Below are positions 3,229 through 63,646 of a stretch of 64,000 nucleotides of DNA, piece after piece. The position numbers and the translations under genes are program-made. The notes beneath the pieces were generated by a model. It saw nothing but the letters and a program-made list of their open reading frames with translations. It searched no databases and was not told where the DNA came from. Position 1 is the first letter of the stretch; every line of letters starts with the position of its first letter. Source of the DNA: an uncultured Caldithrix sp. (GTDB lineage Bacteria; Electryoneota; AABM5-125-24; Hatepunaeales; Hatepunaeaceae); assembly GCA_964355675.1 (NCBI GenBank), contig CAYHEC010000017.1, forward strand, positions 4,310-68,309. Direction: 5' to 3'.

Positions 3229-3621
3229 TTGAAAGGTGAAAGTTTCTACGCGACCGGACGTCGGAAGACATCTGTTGCGCGAGTCTGGCTGCGACCTGGG
3301 AGTGGTCTGATTCTTGTCAATAAAGTTGACATGACCACATATTTCCACCGCGACAGTCTGACAATGATAATCGAACAGCCGCTTGCAGTTGCAGGTGGCG
3401 CGACCGTCTTTGACGTCGAAGTTTACGTTCATGGCGGTGGGAAAGCGGCTCAGGCCGGGGCGATGCGTTTGGGAATGTCTCGAGCGCTCATCAATTTCAA
3501 TCCCGAACTGAAGTCGGTGTTAAGGCAAGGCGGGTTTTTAACCCGAGATCCTCGTGAAAAAGAACGGAAGAAGTATGGACAACCCGGCGCCCGCAAGCGT
3601 TTCCAATACTCCAAGCGATAG
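3229..3621 (+). CDS. rpsI: 30S ribosomal protein S9
   Basis: YATGRRKTSVARVWL...GARKRFQYSKR, typical S9 ends. Confidence 0.9.
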   Translation: MKGESFYATGRRKTSVARVWLRPGSGLILVNKVDMTTYFHRDSLTMIIEQPLAVAGGATVFDVEVYVHGGGKAAQAGAMRLGMSRALINFNPELKSVLRQGGFLTRDPREKERKKYGQPGARKRFQYSKR

Positions 3622-3628
3622 TCTGAGT

Positions 3629-4819
3629 ATGAGCCAGGCACTCCCGATGAATGTCGGGCCGCGTGTCTCGGTCGATCAGCTACTGCTCGCTGGAGCCCAT
3701 TTCGGACATCTGACTCAACGTTGGAATCCGAAAATGAAGCGCTTTATTTTTATGGCGCGTAACGGTATCTACCTGATTGATCTTCAGAAAACACAGGTCA
3801 TGCTTGAGGCGGCCTGTGCTGCCATTGCCAAAATCGCCGCTACTGGTGAAGAAATTCTTTTCATCGGAACCAAGAAGCAGGCGAGAGATGTTATCGAAAC
3901 GGAAGCGAAGAGAGCTCGCTGCCCTTACATGACTTATCGATGGCTTGGCGGTACTCTGACGAATTATTCAACTATTCGCAAGTCACTCAAAACCTTAGAA
4001 GGTCACGAGAAGATGGGAACGGATGGTACCTACGAAAAGTTGAATAAGAAAGAACAGCTTACAATAGAGAAAGAGAAAGGCAAGCTGAACATGACGCTTG
4101 GTGGCATTCGCGAAATGCGGAGACTGCCGGGAGCGGTGTTTATTGTCGATACCAAACGAGAATCTATTGCAGTAGCCGAAGCACGCAAGCTAAAAATCCC
4201 AATTTTTGCCATCGTTGATACAAATGTAGATCCGGACCTGATCGATCACCCTGTACCGGCTAATGATGACGCCTTCAAATCAATCTGGTTGATCACACAC
4301 GCGATCACAGATGCGATTCTTGAGGGAAAACGTGCGGTGAGAGATGTGGCTCCGTCGTCGATGGATCACGAGGAACGCGATCGAGAACGGGACAATCAAC
4401 GCGGCGACCGAAATCAGCGTCGTCGTCGTCCCGCTGGGACAGGTCCAGGCGGATCAGCTGGTGGTCGCGAGCCTCAACAAGTCGATGGGGTCAGGAATGA
4501 AGGCGGCGACCGGGGGCGGAGCGAACACTCTGATCGTGGTGGCCAGTCCGGCGGTGGTGGTAGTCGGCCCGGTGGCGGCGGTGGTCGTCCAGGTGGCGGT
4601 GGCGGCGGTCGCCCAGGTGGCGGAGGTGGTGGTGGTAGTCGGCCCGGTGGCGGTGGTGGCGGCGGTCGCCCAGGCGGCAGTGGCGGTCGGCCTGCTGGCG
4701 GCGGTGGTAGCCGACCTGCTGGTGCGGGAAATAGTCGGCCGGGAGACAGCGCTAAGACCGGCGGAGAGACAAAGAAAGCTCCTCTCGAAAAAACTGAAAA
4801 GACGGGGTCATCAAATTGA
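3629..4819 (+). CDS. rpsB: 30S ribosomal protein S2 with ~150-aa Gly/Arg/Pro-rich C-terminal low-complexity tail
   Basis: LLAGAHFGHLTQRWNPKMKRFIF... S2 core; tail holds about ten GGGG(S)RPGG repeats; start taken at ATG 3629 (alternative 3647). Confidence 0.85.
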   Translation: MSQALPMNVGPRVSVDQLLLAGAHFGHLTQRWNPKMKRFIFMARNGIYLIDLQKTQVMLEAACAAIAKIAATGEEILFIGTKKQARDVIETEAKRARCPYMTYRWLGGTLTNYSTIRKSLKTLEGHEKMGTDGTYEKLNKKEQLTIEKEKGKLNMTLGGIREMRRLPGAVFIVDTKRESIAVAEARKLKIPIFAIVDTNVDPDLIDHPVPANDDAFKSIWLITHAITDAILEGKRAVRDVAPSSMDHEERDRERDNQRGDRNQRRRRPAGTGPGGSAGGREPQQVDGVRNEGGDRGRSEHSDRGGQSGGGGSRPGGGGGRPGGGGGGRPGGGGGGGSRPGGGGGGGRPGGSGGRPAGGGGSRPAGAGNSRPGDSAKTGGETKKAPLEKTEKTGSSN

Positions 4820-14456: not shown

Positions 14457-14488
14457 CTTGGAGGGTGGGATTAATCCCGCCCTCCAAG
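14457..14488. repeat. Palindromic element family A (cttGGAGGGYGGGATTAATCCCGCCCTCCaag)
   Basis: Near-perfect 13-bp inverted repeat around an ATTAAT core. Confidence 0.8.
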
Positions 14489-20515: not shown

Positions 20516-20649
20516 GAATGTAATTTATAAACTTGAAGAGTGGGAAGCAAATCCAATACGCAAATTGTTCAAGGTATGATGAGGAGATTGTCCTTGCCAT
20601 TGTCAATTCACTTTCAGCGGAACAAAAGTAATTACAAAAACAGAGAAGC

Positions 20650-20681
20650 TGTCAACCCTCTGTGGTTGACAGCTTCTCTGC
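20650..20681. terminator. GTCAACC-family terminator hairpin downstream of gcvPB
   Basis: agctgtcaaccctctgtggttgacagct. Confidence 0.6.
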
Positions 20682-22209: not shown

Positions 22210-22240
22210 CTTGGAGGGCGGGATTAATCCCGCCCTCCAG
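22210..22240. repeat. Palindromic element family A
   Basis: cttggagggcgggattaatcccgccctccag. Confidence 0.8.
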
Positions 22241-22301
22241 AACGATATAATAGATTGGGTGATTATGGGATTGAACACTAAATAGTGCCCGATGAAAACT
22301 C

Positions 22302-22367
22302 TCAAAGAGCCCAGGCAGACGCCCTCGTCTGCCTATTTACGGTACTTAATCTAACGGCGGACAAGGG
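22302..22367. repeat. Double-hairpin element family B
   Basis: caggcagacgccctcgtctgcct ... ggcggacaagggcgtccgc. Confidence 0.7.
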
Positions 22368-24470: not shown

Positions 24471-24545
24471 GTAGTAGTGCCGATTTAAATCGGCGCTACC
24501 GGGAAAGAAATCAGATAGTAGGGTGGATTTAAATCCGCCCTACTA
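24471..24545. repeat. Two related ATTTAAAT-core palindromes followed by a T-run (family A variants)
   Basis: gtagtagtgccgatttaaatcggcgctac and tagtagggtggatttaaatccgccctacta, then aaattttttt. Confidence 0.6.
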
Positions 24546-24712
24546 TCAACAAATTTTTTTCACTATACCACAACTCCGCAGTGAACTCATGCGTTTGTTC
24601 CTAACAGATCGTCAGACGCTTGTAATTGATGATTGCAGGGATTATTTTCTAAAATGATTCAATACGGACTCCTAACATTCATTAAGGCAGACTTGACAGG
24701 GCTAATAATTTT

Positions 24713-27249: not shown

Positions 27250-28719
27250 ATGCTTCGAACATTGCGCAGTAAGATATTGACATCTTTAGCGCTTGCCTCT
27301 GTTGTCTCAATCGTCATTTCGACTCTCAGCATAAACTATCTCTTCATTCGTCAGGAAAAAAAATATATCGAACAACGTTTGAAGTTGGTCGCCGAGATGG
27401 CACATGCGACCTTACGCCACCAAATGATCCATTATCATCAGGGAGAACTTGGTGATATTATTAATCGAATTGCCGATCAACCTCCCATTGTCAGCATCAA
27501 AATCATGAATGCTGACGGAATAATCAAAATATCCAGCCTACCGGCAGAGAATAATGAGCCGTTTACAGAAAGCAAATTCCTAATACCGGACAGCATTTTA
27601 TCTCATTATAATCGAATTTTAAACGGACAGCGGGTTATTTCTTCGATTTCACCGATCTACCGCACACCCGACTGTGCATCATGCCATGCCGGACAAGAAA
27701 AGATCTTGGGCTATTTCGACGTCGATGTTACCGCAGAGGAAATCGATAGTGGCATAAGGAACGCTCAGACCTGGATGGTGGTATCTCTGATCTTCATAGT
27801 CATTATATTCTTGGGGACGGCATTCGGTGTTCACTTTCGATTTGTAAAGACCCGAACTCATCAGCTTGCGGTTGGGATTTCTCAGCTTGCCGAAGGGAAT
27901 TTCAACTATCGCATTGAATCAAACCAGCACGATGAGCTTGACGCTCTTGCTGTTCAAATTAACCGCCTCGGCGACCACCTGAACCAAATGAAACAAGAGC
28001 TTCAAAAATCGCACCGCTCAGAGCTTGAGAGAGCTGAGCGTATGGCTTCAGTGGGAGAACTTGCGGCATCGATAGCCCATGAAATCCGTAATCCTGTAGC
28101 AGGTATCTCGAGCGCCATGCAAGTTCTTTCTTCCGAACTTCCGGAAGGTGATGAACGGGCGGTGATTTTCGATGAAATTGTTAATCAAACTCAACGAGTC
28201 AATCGTGCCGTGAACGATCTGCTCAGTTACGCAAGACCATCGACGCCAGAATTGGCGGTTGGATCGATAAATGATCCGTTGACAAGAGCCCTGACATTGA
28301 TGGAGGCTCAGCAACATGCGGTAAAAGTTGTATTTATCAAGCAAATAGAACCGAATTTGCCTCCGGTGTTGTTGGATGTTGAGCAAATTAAACAGGTGTT
28401 TGTCAATCTTGTTATGAACGCTTTGCAGGCGATGAACCACGGCGGAACACTCACGCTTAAGACCTTTTCTGAAAATGAGGAAGTCATTGTTGAAATATCT
28501 GATACAGGACCGGGTGTAGCAGAAAATGTTCTTCAAGACATATTTAAGCCTTTCTTTACCACCAAGCATCAGGGGACAGGCCTGGGGCTTTCCATCTGTC
28601 GTTCGATTATCGAGAGTCACTGCGGAAGAATTGAAGTCGATTCTGTTCGCGGTTCGGGAGCAACTTTTCGCATTAGATTACCCATTCACCGTTTAGAGGA
28701 GGCAAACGAACCAATTTGA
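27250..28719 (+). CDS. Sensor histidine kinase with periplasmic CxxCH (c-type heme) motif and HAMP domain
   Basis: TM1, periplasmic domain containing DCASCHAG, TM2, HAMP, H-box SIAHEIRNP, HATPase GTGLGLSICR. Confidence 0.8.
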   Translation: MLRTLRSKILTSLALASVVSIVISTLSINYLFIRQEKKYIEQRLKLVAEMAHATLRHQMIHYHQGELGDIINRIADQPPIVSIKIMNADGIIKISSLPAENNEPFTESKFLIPDSILSHYNRILNGQRVISSISPIYRTPDCASCHAGQEKILGYFDVDVTAEEIDSGIRNAQTWMVVSLIFIVIIFLGTAFGVHFRFVKTRTHQLAVGISQLAEGNFNYRIESNQHDELDALAVQINRLGDHLNQMKQELQKSHRSELERAERMASVGELAASIAHEIRNPVAGISSAMQVLSSELPEGDERAVIFDEIVNQTQRVNRAVNDLLSYARPSTPELAVGSINDPLTRALTLMEAQQHAVKVVFIKQIEPNLPPVLLDVEQIKQVFVNLVMNALQAMNHGGTLTLKTFSENEEVIVEISDTGPGVAENVLQDIFKPFFTTKHQGTGLGLSICRSIIESHCGRIEVDSVRGSGATFRIRLPIHRLEEANEPI

Positions 28720-30107
28720 CAGGCGCAAAAATACTCATCGTAGATGATGAAAAGCTGATACGTTGGGCTTTGGAAAAAGGCCTGAAACAGATCGGTTTTC
28801 AAGTTGAAACTGCCGCAACCGGTGAGGAGGGACTTCAAAAATATGAGTCCTTCCTGCCCGACGCAGTTATTCTCGACAATAAGCTTCCCGGCATACAGGG
28901 TTTGGAGATTCTCAACGAGTTGAAGAGTCGTGACGCCCGGCTGATTATACTCTTTATGACCGCCTTCGGTACTATCGAAACTGCCGTCGAAGCAATGAAG
29001 CGCGGAGCTTATGATTATATCAATAAACCGTTTGTCTTCGAAGAAATTAGGCAACTGCTTGAAAAAGCCCTCTATGTTCAGCGATTGGATACTGAGGTCC
29101 AGACACTCAAGGCAGTGGTTCAGAAGCAGTTCGACACTGAGAATGTTATCTCACTTTCGCCAGCAATGCGCAATATACTGCAAATGGTGGATAAAATCGC
29201 GCGAAGTGAGGCTCCTACAGTATTGCTGACCGGCGAATCGGGAACAGGCAAGGACTTAATGGCGAGAGTCATCCATGAACGAGGTCCCCGCCGTCAACGT
29301 CCATTCGTTACTATCAATTGTTCAGCGCTTCCCGAGTCTCTTCTTGAAAGTGAATTGTTTGGCTACGAGAAAGGCGCCTTTACCGACGCAAAGCAGATGA
29401 AACGCGGTCAATTCGAACTCGCGTCTGGCGGGACGATCTACCTCGACGAAATTGGGGAAATCGCACTCGGACTTCAGGTCAAGCTCCTGCAGGTAATAGA
29501 AAACCGCATGTTCCGCCGGGTCGGAGGCGTTAAGGACATCCTTGTCGATTCTCTGATCATTGCCGCGACCAATATCAATCTGGCAAGCGCTGTCGAAGCC
29601 GGGATGTTCCGCCGCGATCTGTACTATAGACTTAACTTGATTCCAATTGAATTGCCGCCGTTAAAGTCGCGGCGGGAAGACATTGTTCCCATCGCTCTCT
29701 ATTTTGTGCGGAAATTCAACGATGAGTTTCATCGACATTTCAAGGGTATTACTGATGAAGTGAAGAAGATTCTCACCGAATATGATTGGCCTGGAAACAT
29801 TCGTGAATTACGCAACGTGGTCGAGCGAATTGTGATTCTCGAGAATGACGAAATGATCGAAGCCAACCATCTGCCCATCGAGTTGCGCCAATATGCGGAG
29901 GTTTCCTTGGATCAATCCCATTTCCTTTCAACCCAAGAATTGGGCATTGAAATTCCAGTAGAAGGACTCTCAATGGAAGCTGTCGAAAGGGAATTAGTAG
30001 TGAAAGCGCTGAACAAAACTGCCCAAAATCAAACCAAGGCAGCCAAGATGCTCGACATCACGCGAGACTCGCTTCGCTATAAGATGAAAAAGTTCGGGTT
30101 GCTGTAG
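28716..30107 (+). CDS. Sigma-54-dependent response regulator (NtrC family)
   Basis: REC (ILIVDDEK), AAA+ GESGTGKDL, ESELFGYEKGAFTDA, C-terminal Fis-type HTH. Confidence 0.85.
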   Translation: MTGAKILIVDDEKLIRWALEKGLKQIGFQVETAATGEEGLQKYESFLPDAVILDNKLPGIQGLEILNELKSRDARLIILFMTAFGTIETAVEAMKRGAYDYINKPFVFEEIRQLLEKALYVQRLDTEVQTLKAVVQKQFDTENVISLSPAMRNILQMVDKIARSEAPTVLLTGESGTGKDLMARVIHERGPRRQRPFVTINCSALPESLLESELFGYEKGAFTDAKQMKRGQFELASGGTIYLDEIGEIALGLQVKLLQVIENRMFRRVGGVKDILVDSLIIAATNINLASAVEAGMFRRDLYYRLNLIPIELPPLKSRREDIVPIALYFVRKFNDEFHRHFKGITDEVKKILTEYDWPGNIRELRNVVERIVILENDEMIEANHLPIELRQYAEVSLDQSHFLSTQELGIEIPVEGLSMEAVERELVVKALNKTAQNQTKAAKMLDITRDSLRYKMKKFGLL

Positions 30108-30115
30108 AACACCGT

Positions 30116-30355
30116 CTTGGAGGGCGGACTTCTCGCGTAGGATAAGCGTCCCGCTTGTCAAGAGCGGACTAAAAGAGTTCGTTGATTTATTCGTTCGAGT
30201 AGAGATTTGATCCTCTTGGAGGGGGGGCTTCAGCCCCCCCTAAAGGACGATCAAGCACAAACAAGGGCGGGCTGAAGCCCCCCCTCCAAGAGAATCTTGT
30301 CCGAATTGGCGTCTCAAGCGAATAAATCAACGAACTCTAAAAGTCCGCCCTCCAT
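30116..30355. repeat. Composite nested-palindrome element (~240 bp, MITE-like) built on family A ends
   Basis: Outer arms cttggagggcggact / agtccgccctccatg; inner perfect IR aaaagagttcgttgatttattcg / cgaataaatcaacgaactctaaaag; two central G8C/C8 hairpins. Confidence 0.75.
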
Positions 30356-30356
30356 G

Positions 30357-32102
30357 AATGAAATAACAAATTTAAATCACACCGTACCGGAGTTTCCAAT
30401 GGAAATTAAAGGCAAAAACATTCTCATCCTCGGAGGCTGGGGACTGGTCGGAACCGCGATTTGCCGTAAACTAATAGAATATGGACCTAAAAGTATAACA
30501 ATTGCCTCACTCACCAAAGCTCAAGCCGAAGAAGCCGTTGCCGAGTTAAAACCTATCGCCGCGAAGGTAAAACTGGCGGCGGAGTGGGGGAACATCTTCG
30601 TCCGAAACGAATTCAAAGATCTCTCACGCGATGAAATTCTTGGTAGCCGCGAACGGCGACTGATCCTTGCCGCAGATGTGCTTGAGAGAACGACTGCCAC
30701 CTCGTTCGGGCACTTTTTCCTCTACGACATGATCACCCGTTGCCAGCCCCACATCGTCATCGACTGCGTCAATACAGCAACCGGCGTAGCTTATCAAGAC
30801 ATCTACTCAGCAGGACTGCGCGTCCTTGAATTAGTAAAAGGAGTACAAGCCAACGAACCTGCCGAAGATTTCATTGTCGAAGTTGAGAAACTGCTCGATA
30901 CTCTTTATATACCGCAGATTGTGCGCCATGTGCAGGTGATCTATGCCGCAATGAAGGAAGCAAAAACGCACACATACGTCAAGGTTGGCACGTCTGGCAC
31001 TGGCGGGATGGGACTAAACATTCCTTACACTCACTCCGAAGACAAGCCGTCCCGAGTCTTACTATCTAAAAACTGTATTGCCGGAGCGCATTCGCTGTTG
31101 CTTTTCCTGATGGGAAGGACTCCGGATGCACCTTATGTCAAAGAGGTAAAACCTGCAACTGCCATAGCCTGGAAACGCATCGAGCGGGGAGACATCCTCA
31201 AAGGCGGCAAGCCGATCCCACTTTATGGCTGTCCGGCAGATAAATGTGTCAAGCTCGAGGGAACACTTGACACCGCCGCGAAACCTGCCGACTGCGAACC
31301 CCTCGGCAAGAACTTGCAAGGCGTCTTCATCGACACCGGTGAAAATGGGACATTTTCGCCCGGCGAGTTCACCGCCATTACTACTATTGGCCAGATGGAA
31401 TACATCACTCCTGAAGAGATCGCCAAGACAATCGCCTGGGAGATTGAAGGCGGTAACTCCGGGCACGACATCATCGGAGCCTTGGACGGCGCGGTGCTGA
31501 GTTCGACCTACCGTGCCGGTGTCATGCGGACTCTGGCCATCGACAAGATGAAAGCGATGCTAAAGGAAGAGTCAACCGACCCGGTGGCGTTTGAACTGCT
31601 TGGCCCGCCCCGCCTTTCCAAGCTACTGTACGAGGCGAACCTGTTGAAGCAGACATTCGGCTCAATCGACGCGGTGCTGAAAACAACTCCAAAGAAGCTC
31701 TCCGACGCCTGTATAAAATTGATCCAAAAAGATGACGGATTGCGGAGCAGAATAGTCTCCATCGGCATACCGATCCTGCTTGCCGACGGTAAATCTCTGT
31801 TGAAGGGACCCTTAGTCAAAGTCCCCGCCGATCCCCGTCGCACGAAGTTCACGATCACTCCCGATTCGATTGAGAACTGGTCACACAACGGCTGGGTTGA
31901 CTTAAGGGTTGCCAATATGGTGAAGTGGCAGGAAAGACTGATGTTGTTGAAGAATCAAGCCCTTGCCGTCACCACCGACGACACATCCTCGCATACGATC
32001 CGCGATGCGGCGTTTTGGAGCTTCGACAAACCTCTCGATGAAGGCGAGCTTGTCGGCTGGATCTTCATCGAAGAGGAAAAGGGTTTAAGGATGAAGAGTT
32101 AG
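30357..32102 (+). CDS. Hypothetical Rossmann-fold (NAD(P)-binding) protein, about 580 aa
   Basis: KNILILGGWGLVGTAI GxGxxG motif near the N-terminus; start set at ATG 30357 just outside the repeat (the ORF track starts inside the repeat at 30297). Confidence 0.5.
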   Translation, partial: NEITNLNHTVPEFPMEIKGKNILILGGWGLVGTAICRKLIEYGPKSITIASLTKAQAEEAVAELKPIAAKVKLAAEWGNIFVRNEFKDLSRDEILGSRERRLILAADVLERTTATSFGHFFLYDMITRCQPHIVIDCVNTATGVAYQDIYSAGLRVLELVKGVQANEPAEDFIVEVEKLLDTLYIPQIVRHVQVIYAAMKEAKTHTYVKVGTSGTGGMGLNIPYTHSEDKPSRVLLSKNCIAGAHSLLLFLMGRTPDAPYVKEVKPATAIAWKRIERGDILKGGKPIPLYGCPADKCVKLEGTLDTAAKPADCEPLGKNLQGVFIDTGENGTFSPGEFTAITTIGQMEYITPEEIAKTIAWEIEGGNSGHDIIGALDGAVLSSTYRAGVMRTLAIDKMKAMLKEESTDPVAFELLGPPRLSKLLYEANLLKQTFGSIDAVLKTTPKKLSDACIKLIQKDDGLRSRIVSIGIPILLADGKSLLKGPLVKVPADPRRTKFTITPDSIENWSHNGWVDLRVANMVKWQERLMLLKNQALAVTTDDTSSHTIRDAAFWSFDKPLDEGELVGWIFIEEEKGLRMKS

Positions 32103-32138
32103 GGAAGTGGGAAAGTGCGAAAGTAGGAAAGTGCGAAA

Positions 32139-32165
32139 GTGGGGCGGATTGCAATCCGCCCTACC
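32139..32165. repeat. Family A variant palindrome (ggggcggattgcaatccgcccta)
   Basis: Inverted repeat around a TTGCAA core. Confidence 0.55.
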
Positions 32166-32191
32166 GAATCGCCGCTGACGAAAAGCAAGGA

Positions 32192-32221
32192 CAGCCGTCA
32201 ATCCTCTGGGGTTGACGGTAT
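32192..32221 (+). terminator. GTCAACC-family terminator hairpin
   Basis: agccgtcaatcctctggggttgacggtatc. Confidence 0.6.
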
Positions 32222-32835: not shown

Positions 32836-32863
32836 AGCCGTCAACCCTCCGGGGTTGACAGCG
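32836..32863 (+). terminator. GTCAACC-family terminator hairpin
   Basis: agccgtcaaccctccggggttgacagcgg. Confidence 0.6.
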
Positions 32864-33940: not shown

Positions 33941-34018
33941 GCACCCCGGTAGCTCAATAGGATAGAGTCCCACCCTCGTAAGTTGGAGGTTGCGGGTTCG
34001 AATCCAACGTGGGGTGCG
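33941..34018 (+). tRNA. tRNA-like gene (candidate tRNA-Thr, anticodon CGT), irregular
   Basis: 7-bp acceptor GCACCCC/GGGGTGC, D-arm GCTCAATAGGATAGAGT, T-loop GGTTCGAATCC, anticodon loop CTCGTAA; spacing irregular (4 nt between acceptor and D-stem, weak T-stem). Confidence 0.5.
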
Positions 34019-34785: not shown

Positions 34786-34940
34786 TTGGTAGCGCGTAGG
34801 GGCCGAAGCCACCGAAGGTGGCTTCGTGCCTGCCTCGGCCAGAAAAGCACGATCCCGACAAGTCGGGATCGGCTTCTACGCGGTTGTTAGCTTCTCGACA
34901 TGAACAAAGCTGTCAACCCTCCGGGATTGACAGCTTTGTC
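34786..34940. repeat. Structured intergenic element: nested palindromes plus a GTCAACC-family terminator
   Basis: gcgtaggggccgaagccaccgaaggtggcttcg..., cgatcccgacaagtcgggatcg, then agctgtcaaccctccgggattgacagctt. Confidence 0.6.
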
Positions 34941-37760: not shown

Positions 37761-37767
37761 TGTTCTT

Positions 37768-37860
37768 GGAGGGCGGACTTTCAGTCCGCTCTCGTCCGGG
37801 CAGGACAGGTTTCCAAACCTGTCAGAGCGGACTAAAAGTCCGCCCTCCAAGTATCAATTG
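37768..37860. repeat. Composite nested-palindrome element (family A ends, ~93 bp)
   Basis: cttggagggcggact...gacaggtttccaaacctgtc...agagcggactaaaagtccgccctccaag. Confidence 0.75.
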
Positions 37861-41472: not shown

Positions 41473-41564
41473 TTCCAAGTCTCCGAATACCCGCTACCGC
41501 CCCGCCATAGTCGGCAGAGAAAAAAGCCCACTGCCGACCCGCCGTGGTCGGCAGGAAGCTTAAG

Positions 41565-41700: not shown

Positions 41701-42282
41701 TTGCAAAAGTTATTATTACATATCTGCTGCGCGCCAGATGCGTCGGTTGCCGTCGAAAGACTGCGCGACCGCTATGATCTGACCGGTTATTTCTATAATC
41801 CCAATATAGAGCCACTTACCGAATATGCTCTTCGGGAAGCAGAGGCTCGACTGCTCTCAGCAGTACTCCATTTCAAGTACCTTGAGACTCAACCACTTCG
41901 TGACGAGTGGTTTGAACTCTGCTCTCCCTTTTCCTCCGAACCCGAACGAGGTGAGCGTTGCCGCGTTTGCATTTCTCACCGTCTTAAAACAACAGCCCAA
42001 TGCGCTGTTGTTCATGGAATTACCCATTTCACAACAACTCTTACTACTTCTCCACATAAAGACGTTGACTTCATCCACGAAACTGGCGAAATTTTGGCAA
42101 ATGAATTCGGACTGATCTATCTTCCCGAGACATTTCGCGCGCGCGATGGATTTCGGCGCAGTCTCGAGCTTTGTCGGGAATACAATTTATACCGCCAGAA
42201 CTACTGCGGATGTCGCTGGAGTCAGAGAAATGGCGAACGTGTACTGCCCAAAGAGTCTGATATCATCGTTCGCAGATCATGA
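41701..42282 (+). CDS. queH: Epoxyqueuosine reductase QueH-like (DUF208)
   Basis: LLLHICCAP...YFYNPNIEP...QNYCGC; TTG start. Confidence 0.65.
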   Translation: MQKLLLHICCAPDASVAVERLRDRYDLTGYFYNPNIEPLTEYALREAEARLLSAVLHFKYLETQPLRDEWFELCSPFSSEPERGERCRVCISHRLKTTAQCAVVHGITHFTTTLTTSPHKDVDFIHETGEILANEFGLIYLPETFRARDGFRRSLELCREYNLYRQNYCGCRWSQRNGERVLPKESDIIVRRS

Positions 42283-43508
42283 ATTCGCTTCCGATCATCC
42301 TCGACGGCAGACCGGAGACATACTCCGATCTAGTTAACAAGGCCATCGCGGGGGCAATGGAAATCACTCGCGCCTGGCGTGAGGGCCGGGGGGATGAGGA
42401 AGCGGTCAACCAGATTGAGTCCGACGCTCGCCAAGCTGTCCGTCGAGCGTTCGATCTGCCGAATGATTGCCGGATTATATTCACTTCTTCAATTGAGGAA
42501 GCTCGGAATAGTGCCATCAAGGGGCTTGCATGGGGAGCCGGAACCAGCAGGAACGGGATAATTACCGTCGAAGGCGATCCAGCGGGGTTTGAGGAGTCGG
42601 CGATCTGGCTGGAGCGGTTTGGCTTCCGTTCGATACGGCTTCCAGTCGGAAAAGCCGGAGGGATACCTTTTCCATTGCTTGACAAGTCGGTCGATGACCG
42701 GACGGCTGTGGTGGCGTTACTCTCCACGACTCCCGAAATGTACCGCTGGCGGATACCTGAGATTCGCAAGCTGATAGCCTCGTGCGAAAGGCATGGGGCT
42801 GAATTAGTTATCGACGTTTCGGTTGAAGTGCAAGTGAAACGAATGGAATACGACTCCTCAAAAATGACACTGCTTTGCGATGGAGTTACTCTTGGCGCGC
42901 CGATTGGCGTGGCGTTTGTGGCGCTGAGACCCGGAGCCCGTTTCGGCCCATTGGTCAGCGGAGGCCTTGAGCAGGACGGTTTGCGAGCTGGAAGACTTAA
43001 CCCAGCGCTGGTTGCGGGACTTGCCGCCGCGGTGATGGAGAACGTTTCTTCTGCCGACCCCCTGCGGTCGGCAGCCAGTGGCGTTTCTTCTGCCACCCCC
43101 CCGTGGGTGGCAGCGAGTGGCGGTTCTTCTGCCACCCCCCCGTGGGTGGCAGCACTTTCCACCCTCCGCCAAACCGCCCTTCGTGAGCTTCGCCGCCGTA
43201 TTCCCTCCGCGAGGCTTGTCCATGGCGAAGCCCCCCTGCCGGTCGGGATCACCTTCGTCGTCCCCGGCGTCGAAGGCGAGGCGGTAGTGATGCTCTGCGC
43301 ACAAGAGAACGTCTTCGTCTCGACGGGATCGACCTGTTCGAAGAAGGCGGGCAAACCCTCGCCGGTACTCCTCGCCGCAGGTTTCACGACCGAGGAGGCT
43401 TCCGGGGCGATAGGGTTGACATTCCGCGCCGGGCAGACGGTTGAAGATGTGAAAATGGCGATGGAAGTTATTGGGAAGGCGGTATTAAAACTGATGGAAA
43501 TAGGATGA
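42279..43508 (+). CDS. Cysteine desulfurase-like (class V aminotransferase fold) paralog lacking the PLP lysine, with in-frame hairpin-repeat insertion
   Basis: C-terminal VSTGSTCS active-Cys loop present, but the SxHK PLP motif is replaced by LLCDGV; two 39-bp tandem palindromic units encode SGVSSATPPWVAA x2. Confidence 0.6.
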   Translation: MNSLPIILDGRPETYSDLVNKAIAGAMEITRAWREGRGDEEAVNQIESDARQAVRRAFDLPNDCRIIFTSSIEEARNSAIKGLAWGAGTSRNGIITVEGDPAGFEESAIWLERFGFRSIRLPVGKAGGIPFPLLDKSVDDRTAVVALLSTTPEMYRWRIPEIRKLIASCERHGAELVIDVSVEVQVKRMEYDSSKMTLLCDGVTLGAPIGVAFVALRPGARFGPLVSGGLEQDGLRAGRLNPALVAGLAAAVMENVSSADPLRSAASGVSSATPPWVAASGGSSATPPWVAALSTLRQTALRELRRRIPSARLVHGEAPLPVGITFVVPGVEGEAVVMLCAQENVFVSTGSTCSKKAGKPSPVLLAAGFTTEEASGAIGLTFRAGQTVEDVKMAMEVIGKAVLKLMEIG

Positions 43509-43760: not shown

Positions 43761-45029
43761 ATGATCTACTTCGACAATAACGACACTACGCCTCTCCACC
43801 CTGAGGCACTCGCGGCGATGATGCCCTACTTCACCGACAAATTCGGCAACCCCTCATCACTGCACACACTCGGTCTTGAAGCTGAGACCGCTCTCGACGA
43901 GGCGCGCGAGACCATTGCCTCCGCAATCAGCGCTTCGCCCAAAGAGATTGTCTTCACATCCGGCGCGACCGAAGCTAACAACCTTGCCATCCTCGGCGCG
44001 GCTCGCGCTCGCCCTGACCGCAAGCACCTCATCATCTCTGCCGTCGAGCACGCCTCTGTCCTGCAGATCGCCAAACGGCTCGAAGGCGAGGGCATCCGCG
44101 TTACGAAGTTGCCCGTCGATGGGCAGGGGTTCGTTTCGTCAGACACACTCCGCGATGCGCTTGACGACGACACCTTCCTCGTCAGTATAATTTACGCCAA
44201 TCACGAGATTGGCACGATTCAGGACTTAAAAACCCTCGCGGCGATTGCTCACGAAAAGGGAGCCTGGGTCCACACCGACGCCGCGCAAGCGCTTGGCAAG
44301 ATCCCTTGCGACGTGAAGGAGCTTGGCGTTGACCTTGCTTCGTTCAATGGGCACAAACTGCACGGGCCTAAAGGAGTCGGAGCGCTATACTTCAGTCGCA
44401 AATGCCGCCCGAAACGGCTGATGGAAGGCGCGGCTCAGGAGAACGACCTCCGCCCGGGGACTGAGAACGTCCCGGCGATTATAGGATTTGCCAAGGCCGC
44501 TGAAATCGCCGTTCGGGACAGGGAAGAAGTGACCAATCACGTCAATCGGCTGGTGAAACGGCTGGCAGATGGACTTTCGGAGTTGCCACACACGCGTCTT
44601 AATGGGCCACCGCCGGGGACACCCCCCGACACCTTGGAGGGCGGACTTCAGTCCGCCCCACTGCATGTTCCTCAAATGACTCGTCTTCCCGGTAATCTCA
44701 ATGTCACCTACCTTTACATCGAGGGCGAAGCAATACTAATGCACCTCTCTAACCGTGAGATAGCCGTCTCTTCGGGGAGCGCCTGCTCGTCGAAGTCGCT
44801 CGTGCCGTCATCAGTGTTGACGTCCATCGGCTTGATCCATGAGGAAGCTCATGGCGCGATACGGTATTCCCTCTCAAGGTTCAATACGATAGAAGAAGTC
44901 GAGACGGTCATCGTGAAATCTCGTGAGGTGGTGGAACTGCTTAGAGCGATGACGGCATTCGTGCCAGAGCTTCACTCTGAGCGTGAGGGGGGGGAAGGCT
45001 TCTATCGCAGTCGCGATAAAACGACTTGA
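43761..45029 (+). CDS. nifS: Cysteine desulfurase (NifS/IscS family) with an in-frame family A palindrome insertion
   Basis: SFNGHKLHGPKGVGALY (PLP Lys) and SSGSACSS (active Cys); insertion at 44633-44660 encodes DTLEGGLQSAPL. Confidence 0.8.
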   Translation: MIYFDNNDTTPLHPEALAAMMPYFTDKFGNPSSLHTLGLEAETALDEARETIASAISASPKEIVFTSGATEANNLAILGAARARPDRKHLIISAVEHASVLQIAKRLEGEGIRVTKLPVDGQGFVSSDTLRDALDDDTFLVSIIYANHEIGTIQDLKTLAAIAHEKGAWVHTDAAQALGKIPCDVKELGVDLASFNGHKLHGPKGVGALYFSRKCRPKRLMEGAAQENDLRPGTENVPAIIGFAKAAEIAVRDREEVTNHVNRLVKRLADGLSELPHTRLNGPPPGTPPDTLEGGLQSAPLHVPQMTRLPGNLNVTYLYIEGEAILMHLSNREIAVSSGSACSSKSLVPSSVLTSIGLIHEEAHGAIRYSLSRFNTIEEVETVIVKSREVVELLRAMTAFVPELHSEREGGEGFYRSRDKTT

Positions 45030-47067: not shown

Positions 47068-47111
47068 TCCCACTTTGAATTAGAACCTATTCTAAGCTTG
47101 CCTGAACTTCG

Positions 47112-47160
47112 AGACCAAGCTGTCATTTCTGCCGGAATGACAGCTTGGTCTTGATTTTAA
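47112..47160 (+). terminator. Rho-independent terminator
   Basis: gagaccaagctgtcatttctgccggaatgacagcttggtcttgatttt. Confidence 0.75.
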
Positions 47161-63614: not shown

Positions 63615-63646
63615 CTTGGAGGGCGGGATTAATCCCGCCCTCCATG
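63615..63646. repeat. Family A palindrome
   Basis: cttggagggcgggattaatcccgccctccatg. Confidence 0.8.

Follow-up and report, generated by a model that had tools for sequence, protein, structure and literature searches.

A nested intergenic palindrome in an uncultured Caldithrix sp. is probably a cluster of GGAG-tagged REP units

What kind of element is a palindrome of about 240 bp that is itself built of smaller palindromes? The question is raised by a 64,000-nt stretch of DNA from an uncultured Caldithrix sp. (contig CAYHEC010000017.1, positions 4,310 to 68,309, assembly GCA_964355675.1), hereafter the window. In this stretch, a gap of 291 bp between a sigma-54 response-regulator gene and an SDR-like gene is filled nearly entirely by a layered imperfect palindrome (30116-30356, the composite), and a shorter palindrome of 87 bp lies at 37765-37851. 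The original prediction, made from the sequence alone, took both for non-autonomous repeat elements built from shared "family A" ends, either resembling miniature inverted-repeat transposable elements (MITEs) or forming large structured RNAs, rather than simple repetitive extragenic palindromes (REPs). REPs are small non-coding repeats that accumulate between bacterial genes, and REP-associated tyrosine transposases (RAYTs) are thought to spread them. We find that the two elements are indeed related through a shared family-A hairpin, and that family A is itself a REP family: a tagged, GC-rich hairpin that is mostly intergenic and that flanks RAYT genes elsewhere. The composites are REP doublets and clusters, i.e. 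REP doublets forming hairpins (REPINs) and clusters resembling bacterial interspersed mosaic elements (BIMEs), and the 240-bp and 87-bp elements are very probably clusters of REP units from a GGAG-tagged branch of the GTAG REP superfamily.

Both palindromes are built from one tagged hairpin

Both palindromes consist of the hairpin CTTGGAG-GGCGGRMT-loop-AKYCCGCC, which occurs at six sites in the window. Written out, the family-A unit is CTTGGAG-GGCGG(GAT/ACT)-loop-(ATC/AGT)CCGCC(CTCCAAG), and its units of 29-32 bp, with stems of 8-16 bp and loops of at most 3 nt, have the size and palindromic form of REPs. Five of the six sites are intergenic and one is intragenic; three lie 4-8 nt past a stop codon. 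With as many as 2 mismatches allowed, the window holds 17 copies of the 12-mer motif where 4.35 are expected, a count that none of 100 shuffles reaches. Family A and three further hairpins tagged GTAG or GTGG thus form the dispersed, mostly extragenic copies that characterise REPs, and within the window one stem base is borne with GGAG, GTGG or GTAG tags.

The composite begins 8 nt past the stop codon of the response-regulator gene and is symmetric about ~30253 over nearly its whole length, with outer arms GGAGGGCGGACT at 30119-30130 (+) and 30342-30353 (-). Folded as single-stranded DNA it reaches -82.7 kcal/mol, compared with -32.8 +/- 3.5 in shuffles (z = -14.3), so the nested imperfect palindrome originally described at 30116-30355 is present. 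Innermost is a REP doublet (30209-30296) with 33-nt arms that are 94% complementary, in which a left unit (~30212-30241, with a G7/C7 hairpin) and a right unit (~30264-30293) flank a spacer at 30242-30263. Its halves are the local hairpins GGAGGGGGGGCT-TC-AGCCCCCCCT and AGGGCGGGCT-GA-AGCCCCCCCTCC. The next layer outward consists of mutually unrelated stretches of 8 nt (left) and 15 nt (right), and the third of 39-nt arms (30161-30199 and 30313-30351) that are 85% complementary. The outermost layer is an additional degenerate REP on the left side only (30116-30160); its right arm, GTCCCGCTTGTCA, is degenerate, and the unit has no mirror partner on the composite's right side. The nesting is composite: the second REP of an outer pair is split in its loop by a palindrome that itself holds a REP pair.

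Some details of the initial description change with this layout. The two central hairpins are there, with runs of G7/C7 and GGGCGGG/C7 in place of the supposed G8C/C8. What had been called a perfect 23-bp inverted repeat is a perfect 20-bp one, AGAGTTCGTTGATTTATTCG / CGAATAAATCAACGAACTCT, and the AAAAG that adjoins it is repeated directly, not inverted. The sequence GAGCGGACTAAAAG, said to occur in each arm, occurs in the left arm (30162) and not in the right; its sole other copy in the window is at 37825, within the shorter palindrome. That relative was placed at 37768-37860 with a length of ~93 bp, and while its relationship through GAGCGGACTAAAAG and its central palindrome hold, its bounds are 37765-37851 and its length 87 bp.

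The 87-bp element is a head-to-head REP dimer, or REPIN, with a structured spacer. It begins 4 nt past the stop codon of a HIT-family gene, its tags point outward, and its 30-nt spacer has a palindrome of its own, GACAGGTTTCCAAACCTGTC (37804-37823). Between the inner arms AGTCCGCTCT and AGAGCGGACT the pairing is perfect, whereas the local hairpins each contain a G-T or A-C mismatch; the whole folds to -40.6 kcal/mol (z = -12.6). Both this element and the central doublet at 30209-30296 have the REPIN arrangement of two inverted REPs around a spacer, and comparable dimers with spacer hairpins flank RAYT genes in two of the loci collected from other genomes (L110, L130). The spacers and interiors of the 87-bp and 240-bp elements are mutually unrelated.

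Could the two whole elements instead be classical MITEs, mobilised by a DDE transposase, with the family-A sequence CTTGGAGGGCGGACT serving as terminal inverted repeats? In favour, both elements are small, do not encode protein and end in inverted copies of one ~15-nt sequence. However, neither 30116-30356 nor 37765-37851 is flanked by a target-site duplication, which had been proposed as a check; the supposed ends also stand alone as full hairpins of 29-32 bp; the interiors differ entirely between the two elements; and family-A ends flank RAYT (HUH) genes rather than DDE transposases (see below). We therefore consider this explanation very unlikely. The absence of a target-site duplication around the whole elements is what is expected of HUH transposition.

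An RNA with a fold under selection, such as a small RNA, a riboswitch-like leader or a processed 3' untranslated region element, has also to be considered, as the composite lies between two same-strand genes, is probably transcribed, and is predicted to fold as RNA to -146.6 kcal/mol (z = -14.8). Against this, the opposite DNA strand is equally stable (-82.8 kcal/mol). In Rfam, no family reached its gathering score anywhere in the window apart from tRNA, and 29900-30600 gave at E <= 1 only sub-threshold noise from generic microRNA-hairpin models. The region is moreover absent from the orthologous loci of close relatives, and its modules are dispersed in this genome and many others, all of which makes a large structured RNA hard to credit.

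The main family-A hairpins have no T tract and do not resemble intrinsic terminators; a terminator scan gave 10 sites against 9.0 +/- 3.0 in shuffles, and a promoter and terminator scan of the window found nothing above shuffles. Unit orientation alternates as in BIMEs, but the linkers are unique sequences. An origin from a tRNA anticodon arm or T arm, an integron attC site and a sigma-54 promoter were dropped on our own reasoning, the sequences being off consensus.

Family A flanks RAYT genes in other genomes

The family was sought in one genome per species with the pattern TTGGAGGGCGGRMT-N2-5-AKYCCGCC, which returned more than 90 stretches, a lower bound, where by our own estimate ~17 would be expected by chance. 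Among the matches listed, more than 20 were in one Saprospirales metagenome-assembled genome (MAG), 9 in one Acidobacteriota MAG, 4 in one Calditrichota MAG and 3 in one Bdellovibrionota MAG, and several Verrucomicrobiota genomes also hold the hairpin. Some lone matches in high-GC genomes are probably due to chance. Although the pattern left their pairing free, the three variable positions at the top of the stem are nearly always complementary, indicating covariation. In Saprospiraceae the typical form is an inverted doublet, TTGGAGGGCGGAATTTATTCCGCC-N8-12-GGCGGAATAAATTCCGCCCTCCAA. When hairpins were called by their stem alone, a GGAGG tag stood on exactly one end in 133 of 151, as in the GTAG REP superfamily, whose hairpins bear a conserved tetranucleotide, GTAG or a sequence close to it, at one end.

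Clustering the open reading frames of 90 loci with the hairpin yielded one small family that adjoins it, in four loci (L058, L092, L042 and L066), and no other gene family among the 90 loci was recurrently linked to it. These proteins are RAYTs: they match Pfam Y1_Tnp, are found with E. coli RayT by phmmer (2.8e-9), carry the HUH motif and the catalytic Tyr-x3-NP motif, and score 99.8 (L058), 79.6 (L092), 68.7 (L042) and, in the truncated L066, 26.6 bits against NCBIfam REP_Tyr_transpos (cutoff 80). Their hosts are one WOR-3 MAG, two Bacteroidota MAGs and one Acidobacteriota MAG, i.e. three phyla. The genes are flanked by family-A doublet arrays, on both sides in L058, and the Acidobacteriota MAG that contains L092 has the same REP at no fewer than 8 further loci. 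A genome usually holds about one RAYT gene (PMC5581495), and four hairpin-adjoining RAYTs in 664 kb are thus far above chance. A RAYT flanked by the same REPs (a REPtron) is accordingly seen in these four loci, and not in the window.

From metagenomes we drew 80 further RAYT loci, of which 60 were screened for flanking hairpins. Tagged hairpins flanked the gene in 46 of the 60, with tags GTGG (52 hairpins), GTAG (38) and GGAG (11), on stems that often start GGCGG(A/G), for example GTGG-GGCGGGAT, GTAG-GGCGGACA and GGAG-GGGCGGACG. As hairpins with all three tags flank RAYTs, family A is best placed as a GGAG-tagged member of the GTAG REP superfamily. The enzymes beside the same hairpin base are mutually only ~33% identical, while RAYTs that come much closer to the L058 enzyme, at 55-68% identity, go with different stems. 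None of the 120 RAYT protein matches listed is named Calditrichota, most of those listed being without taxonomy.

Two further features of the RAYT loci were observed. In L058 (~1015-1230) and L042 (~2080-2110), the RAYT reading frame enters a flanking REP, such that the final residues and the stop codon are REP-derived. In L066, from a Saprospiraceae MAG, family-A doublets are repeated in tandem every 134 bp (3282-3680), directly upstream of the RAYT gene.

A REP split by a 161-bp palindromic segment

The 28-mer AGAGCGGACTAAAAGTCCGCCCTCCAAG is uninterrupted in the right-hand REP of the 87-bp element (37824-37851), whereas in the composite it is broken between 30175 and 30337 by 161 bp. The left piece (30161-30175) agrees with the intact REP at every one of its first 15 nt. 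Taking out the 161 bp plus one copy of a direct repeat restores the unit: 30161-30175 joined to 30337-30356 gives AGAGCGGACTAAAAGTCCGCCCTCCATG, with 27 of 28 positions as in the intact REP. The segment has perfect 18-bp terminal inverted repeats, AGTTCGTTGATTTATTCG (30176-30193 and the complement of 30319-30336), and the direct repeat around it measures 3-7 bp, being CTAAAAG, or AAA under a 20-bp reading of the terminal repeats. Judged from sequence, this combination of split REP, terminal inverted repeats and direct repeat is the signature of an insertion into a REP loop. The MITE-like character originally suggested for the whole elements survives for this inner segment only, with its 18-20 bp ends and its 3-7 bp direct repeat.

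Where might such a segment come from? It may be a DDE-type MITE, a composite moved by an HUH enzyme or a local product. Insertion sequences are known to target REPs (PMC1525189), and REP dimers lying within longer palindromes, as well as REP doublets with structured spacers and tandem arrays, are on record (PMC3733652). The inner 18-mer and 24-mer recur nowhere else in the window when as many as 3 mismatches are allowed, the inner ends of the segment have no match in JGI metagenomes, and the non-REP pieces (the 161-bp arms and the spacers) gave no significant short-BLAST match in ~1.1 Mb of collected loci.

The perfect terminal repeats, the direct CTAAAAG, the nearly exact restoration of the REP and the published precedent for insertion sequences in REPs would all follow if the segment (30176-30336) were an independent MITE with terminal inverted repeats, moved into the REP loop by a DDE enzyme with a 3-7 bp target-site duplication, the central REP pair having come separately. 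We regard this as possible but doubtful. There is no second copy in any of the sequence searched, no transposase with these ends was seen, and without the central REP pair only ~65-70 bp would be left. An HUH enzyme, too, can leave what looks like a direct repeat if the end of the element resembles the target, and REP dimers within longer palindromes that move as one unit have already been described (PMC3733652).

The layers might also have grown in place, by template switching at a hairpin in the course of replication, or by hairpin-primed fold-back synthesis in which flanking DNA was copied inverted, with no transposition of the inner segment at all. Symmetry about a single axis over nearly the whole composite would fit such growth, as would non-REP arms that are unique in everything searched and arms that are imperfect (85-94%), as for an old event. 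An inverted duplication does not, however, predict AAAAG flanks that are direct rather than inverted, nor the unrelated stretches of 8 and 15 nt between layers, and the arms have no significant similarity to the relatives' ancestral spacer. We find this account unlikely, more so than an inserted MITE.

Orthologous loci and assembly support

Named homologues of the window's SDR protein at 52-68% identity are mostly from Calditrichota or Caldithrix, which marks the host as Calditrichota-like. Three closer relatives, whose SDR proteins are 90, 88 and 86% identical, have the same gene order, with spacers of 142, 91 and 93 bp in place of the composite's gap. None of these three orthologous spacers contains a family-A hairpin, indicating that the cluster was gained in the window's lineage. 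When the composite was locally aligned to the three spacers in search of ancestral remnants, only the last ~25-35 nt before the ATG, next to the ribosome-binding site, scored above shuffles.

A relative with 82% SDR identity has an unrelated family of palindromic doublets (CCGCCGTCRCYGCCCCGTCGGTGACGG followed by an inverted copy; L181 557-640 and 9640-9790, and L182). One doublet precedes the SDR gene and another follows the HIT gene, the slots that family-A elements occupy in the window. A more distant relative has family-A-like hairpins at other places. Such intergenic slots are thus subject to turnover and repeated colonisation.

A separate metagenome assembly of the same strain provides a check on the sequence itself. 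One ENA contig (L001) is 100% identical to the window up to 30199, and another (L095) matches from 30288 on, with 2 mismatches in 11.8 kb, both intragenic. Look-ups with the response-regulator and SDR proteins for same-strain contigs that read through the composite found only these two, both stopping inside it. The two arms nevertheless recur in the second assembly, and with them the two junctions of the 161-bp segment; L095 covers the 87-bp element in full. A fold-back chimera or a repeat mis-join could account for an assembly that breaks on either side of the centre, and for other contigs that break at family-A hairpins. Such an artefact is most improbable, given that the arms and junctions are identical in the second assembly, that the 87-bp element lies fully within one contig, and that the composite's arms are imperfect and interrupted by unrelated 8-nt and 15-nt inserts, which sets them apart from a fold-back chimera.

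The short-read contigs of this strain (L002, L001 and L095) end inside family-A hairpins, at 22214, 30199 and 30288, and contigs with RAYT homologues are mostly only 1-2 kb long. Family-A repeats fragment metagenome assemblies.

Several points weigh against reading the locus as a GGAG-tagged REP cluster that received an inserted segment. GGAG is absent from the tag variants of the 2013 survey (GYAG, GYRG, GTRG, GTMG and GTGG) (PMC3733652), and neither phmmer with E. coli RayT nor a profile hidden Markov model of the clade found a RAYT in the 64-kb window. The direct repeat could be only 3 bp (AAA), which is weak taken alone, and as the non-REP parts were seen nowhere else, the inner segment cannot be demonstrated to be a repeated mobile unit. 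The "empty" sites belong to other species with diverged spacers, and show presence and absence rather than a clean insertion boundary. Finally, the centre of the composite (30200-30287) is supported by the window's own assembly alone.

How a nested REP cluster could arise

REPs and REPINs are non-autonomous; a single-copy transposase of the HUH/Y1 type, the RAYT, acts on them in trans, as is understood from RAYTs and IS200/IS605-type HUH enzymes. The anatomy, the repeat family, its association with RAYT genes in other genomes and its absence from orthologous loci are shown by the sequences; that a RAYT mobilised the units in the present host, which layer came first and any influence on expression are inferred. 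REP hairpins would be recognised on single-stranded DNA, cut beside the tag and copied or moved in trans by a RAYT encoded elsewhere in the genome, and such HUH/Y1 movement would leave no target-site duplication. In a first layer, a REP pair would have settled 8 nt past the stop codon of the response-regulator gene. In a second, the 161-bp palindromic segment would have entered the loop of the second REP, splitting it and producing the CTAAAAG direct repeat at the junctions. The third layer would be the REP pair of a different stem variant that this segment bears at its centre. Clusters may grow by such nesting, since existing REPs would draw further insertions.

The hairpins 4-8 nt past stop codons are probable stabilisers of transcript 3' ends, or attenuators. 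Liang, Rudd and Deutscher reportedly found in 2015 that E. coli REPs at most 15 nt from a stop codon dampen translation of the upstream gene, and by analogy the stop-proximal hairpins may lower upstream-gene translation here.

Comparison with known repeat systems

The closest counterparts are the REPINs and RAYTs of P. fluorescens SBW25 (Bertels and Rainey, 2011; PMC3116915), which likewise consist of two inverted REPs and a spacer, ~90-100 bp in all, and can form one long hairpin. They also have no target-site duplication, occur with single REPs beside doublets, and have a RAYT flanked by the same REPs, as seen here in other genomes. Unlike in SBW25, the tag is GGAG rather than GTAG, the host is from a little-studied phylum and Calditrichota-like, and the hairpin base occurs in several phyla beside RAYTs of ~33% identity.

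Much the same holds for the GTAG REP families, dimers and REPtrons surveyed by Di Nocera et al. (2013; PMC3733652), which share the tagged stem-loop (its stem 6-13 bp long, its loop short), the head-to-head dimers with structured spacers, the clusters and the intragenic copies. Their dimers within longer palindromes (A. variabilis GTAG-15 and H. neapolitanus CGTC-1) closely match the central doublet in its 161-bp palindrome. GGAG is however unlisted and the Calditrichota unsurveyed there, and in the present composite another REP carries the long palindrome within its loop.

E. coli BIMEs resemble the composite as mosaic clusters of inverted REPs between same-strand genes, and the tandem array of L066 is a further likeness. 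They differ in that the present elements have no conserved linker motifs, have an unrelated stem and are nested rather than merely alternating. Classical bacterial MITEs such as Correia and ERIC are similarly small, non-coding, palindromic and intergenic, but the whole elements here are without target-site duplication and their ends are hairpins tied to an HUH, not a DDE, enzyme.

In enterobacteria, IS1397 and ISKpn1 insert into REP loops. With the REP-targeting insertion sequences as a group (IS1397, ISKpn1 and the IS110 family; Tobes and Pareja, 2006; PMC1525189), the composite has in common that a foreign segment, bearing terminal inverted repeats and bordered by a short direct repeat, occupies precisely a REP loop; it differs in that this segment, of 161 bp, does not encode protein and is a palindrome over its full length.

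REPs, REPINs, BIMEs and REPtrons are already well known, from several phyla (PMC3733652). What is new here is the GGAG tag, the Calditrichota host and the clear nesting in a split REP. For REP biology, this adds a GGAG-tagged branch with RAYT association beyond the well-studied Gammaproteobacteria, and a clean example of a palindromic element lodged in a REP loop. We know of no parent insertion sequence for that 161-bp element. For annotation, it explains conspicuous intergenic palindromes in Calditrichota-like and many environmental genomes, together with the short-read assembly breaks found there.

More tentatively, the GGAG-GGCGG hairpin might represent one REP lineage over at least five phyla (Calditrichota, Bacteroidota, Acidobacteriota, WOR-3 and Bdellovibrionota), with REP loops as the targets of a second class of palindromic elements, although we think this improbable. 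The prevailing view is that REPIN-RAYT systems are strictly vertically inherited. Were the lineage shared, either REPtrons would cross phyla, or widely different RAYTs would converge on one hairpin base, and transfer of REPtrons between phyla would bear on the debate over purely vertical inheritance; otherwise the locus is an ordinary REP cluster. Were REP loops the targets of a second palindromic class that leaves a short duplication, self-nesting palindromes would result.

Feature coordinates and other repeats in the window

Table 1. Features of the composite, the 87-bp element, further REP units and neighbouring genes, in window coordinates.
Feature	Position	Strand	Remarks
REP unit 1, ACT stem type	30116-30160		tag and left arm CTTGGAG-GGCGGACT, 17-nt loop
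REP unit 2, left part AGAGCGGA-CTAAAAG	30161-30175		
Direct repeat CTAAAAG (7 bp), left copy	30169-30175	+	flanks 161-bp insert
161-bp palindromic segment	30176-30336		lies in the REP unit 2 loop
Central REP doublet, GCT stem type, REPIN-like	30209-30296		arms of 33 nt
Direct repeat, right copy (30337-30343), then REP unit 2 right part TCCGCCCTCCATG	30337-30356		
Intact 87-bp REPIN	37765-37851		left REP 37765-37793, inverted right REP 37824-37851
Single family-A REP, GAT type, CTTGGAGGGTGGGATTAATCCCGCCCTCCAAG	14457-14488		intergenic
Single family-A REP, GAT type	22210-22241		intergenic; Logan contig L002 starts inside, at 22214
Single family-A REP, ACT type	44633-44661		GGAG tag at one end, GTGG at the other; in-frame in cysteine desulfurase gene
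Single family-A REP, GAT type	63615-63646		5 nt past stop codon
Sibling REP, canonical GTAG tag, GTAG-GGTGGATT..AATCCGCC-CTAC	24514-24547		similar stem base
Sibling REP, GTGG-GGCGGATT..AATCCGCC-CTAC	~32136-32166		GTGG and GTAG tags, same stem base
Sigma-54 response-regulator gene	28716-30107	+	upstream neighbour of composite
SDR-like gene	ATG at 30399	+	downstream neighbour of composite

Of the sibling REPs, the one at ~32136 is 36 nt past the stop codon of the gene downstream of the composite. The other is part of a pair of adjoining GTAG-tagged hairpins (24474-24499 and 24514-24547) with different stems (GTAGTGCCGATTTAAATCGGCGCTAC / GTAGGGTGGATTTAAATCCGCCCTAC), between divergent genes.

The single intragenic family-A unit (44633-44661) is inside a gene for an IscS/NifS-like cysteine desulfurase (43761-45029, +), where it is translated as ..TLEGGLQSAPL... 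The protein has ~20 additional residues between its structure-aligned parts (query 2-275 and 307-404). The preceding gene, a paralogue encoding a class-V aminotransferase (42279-43508, +), contains three tandem 39-bp hairpin units in-frame at 43051-43152 (CTGCCRMCCCC..GGGKYGGCAG), which occupy the loop corresponding to the REP-bearing loop of the desulfurase. Related hairpins are also found at 41531.

Several palindromic repeat families are present in this genome. A second, unrelated intergenic hairpin family, (A)GCTGTCAACCC-TCYG-GGGTTGACAGC(T), occurs at 20641-20680, 32195-32218, 32837-32862, 34904-34939 and 47109-47154, and a third, GCAGGCAGACG.., at 22313 and 41665. The window also contains a tRNA-Thr (CGT) gene (33943-34017, +), located between the HARE-HTH and cytidylate kinase genes.

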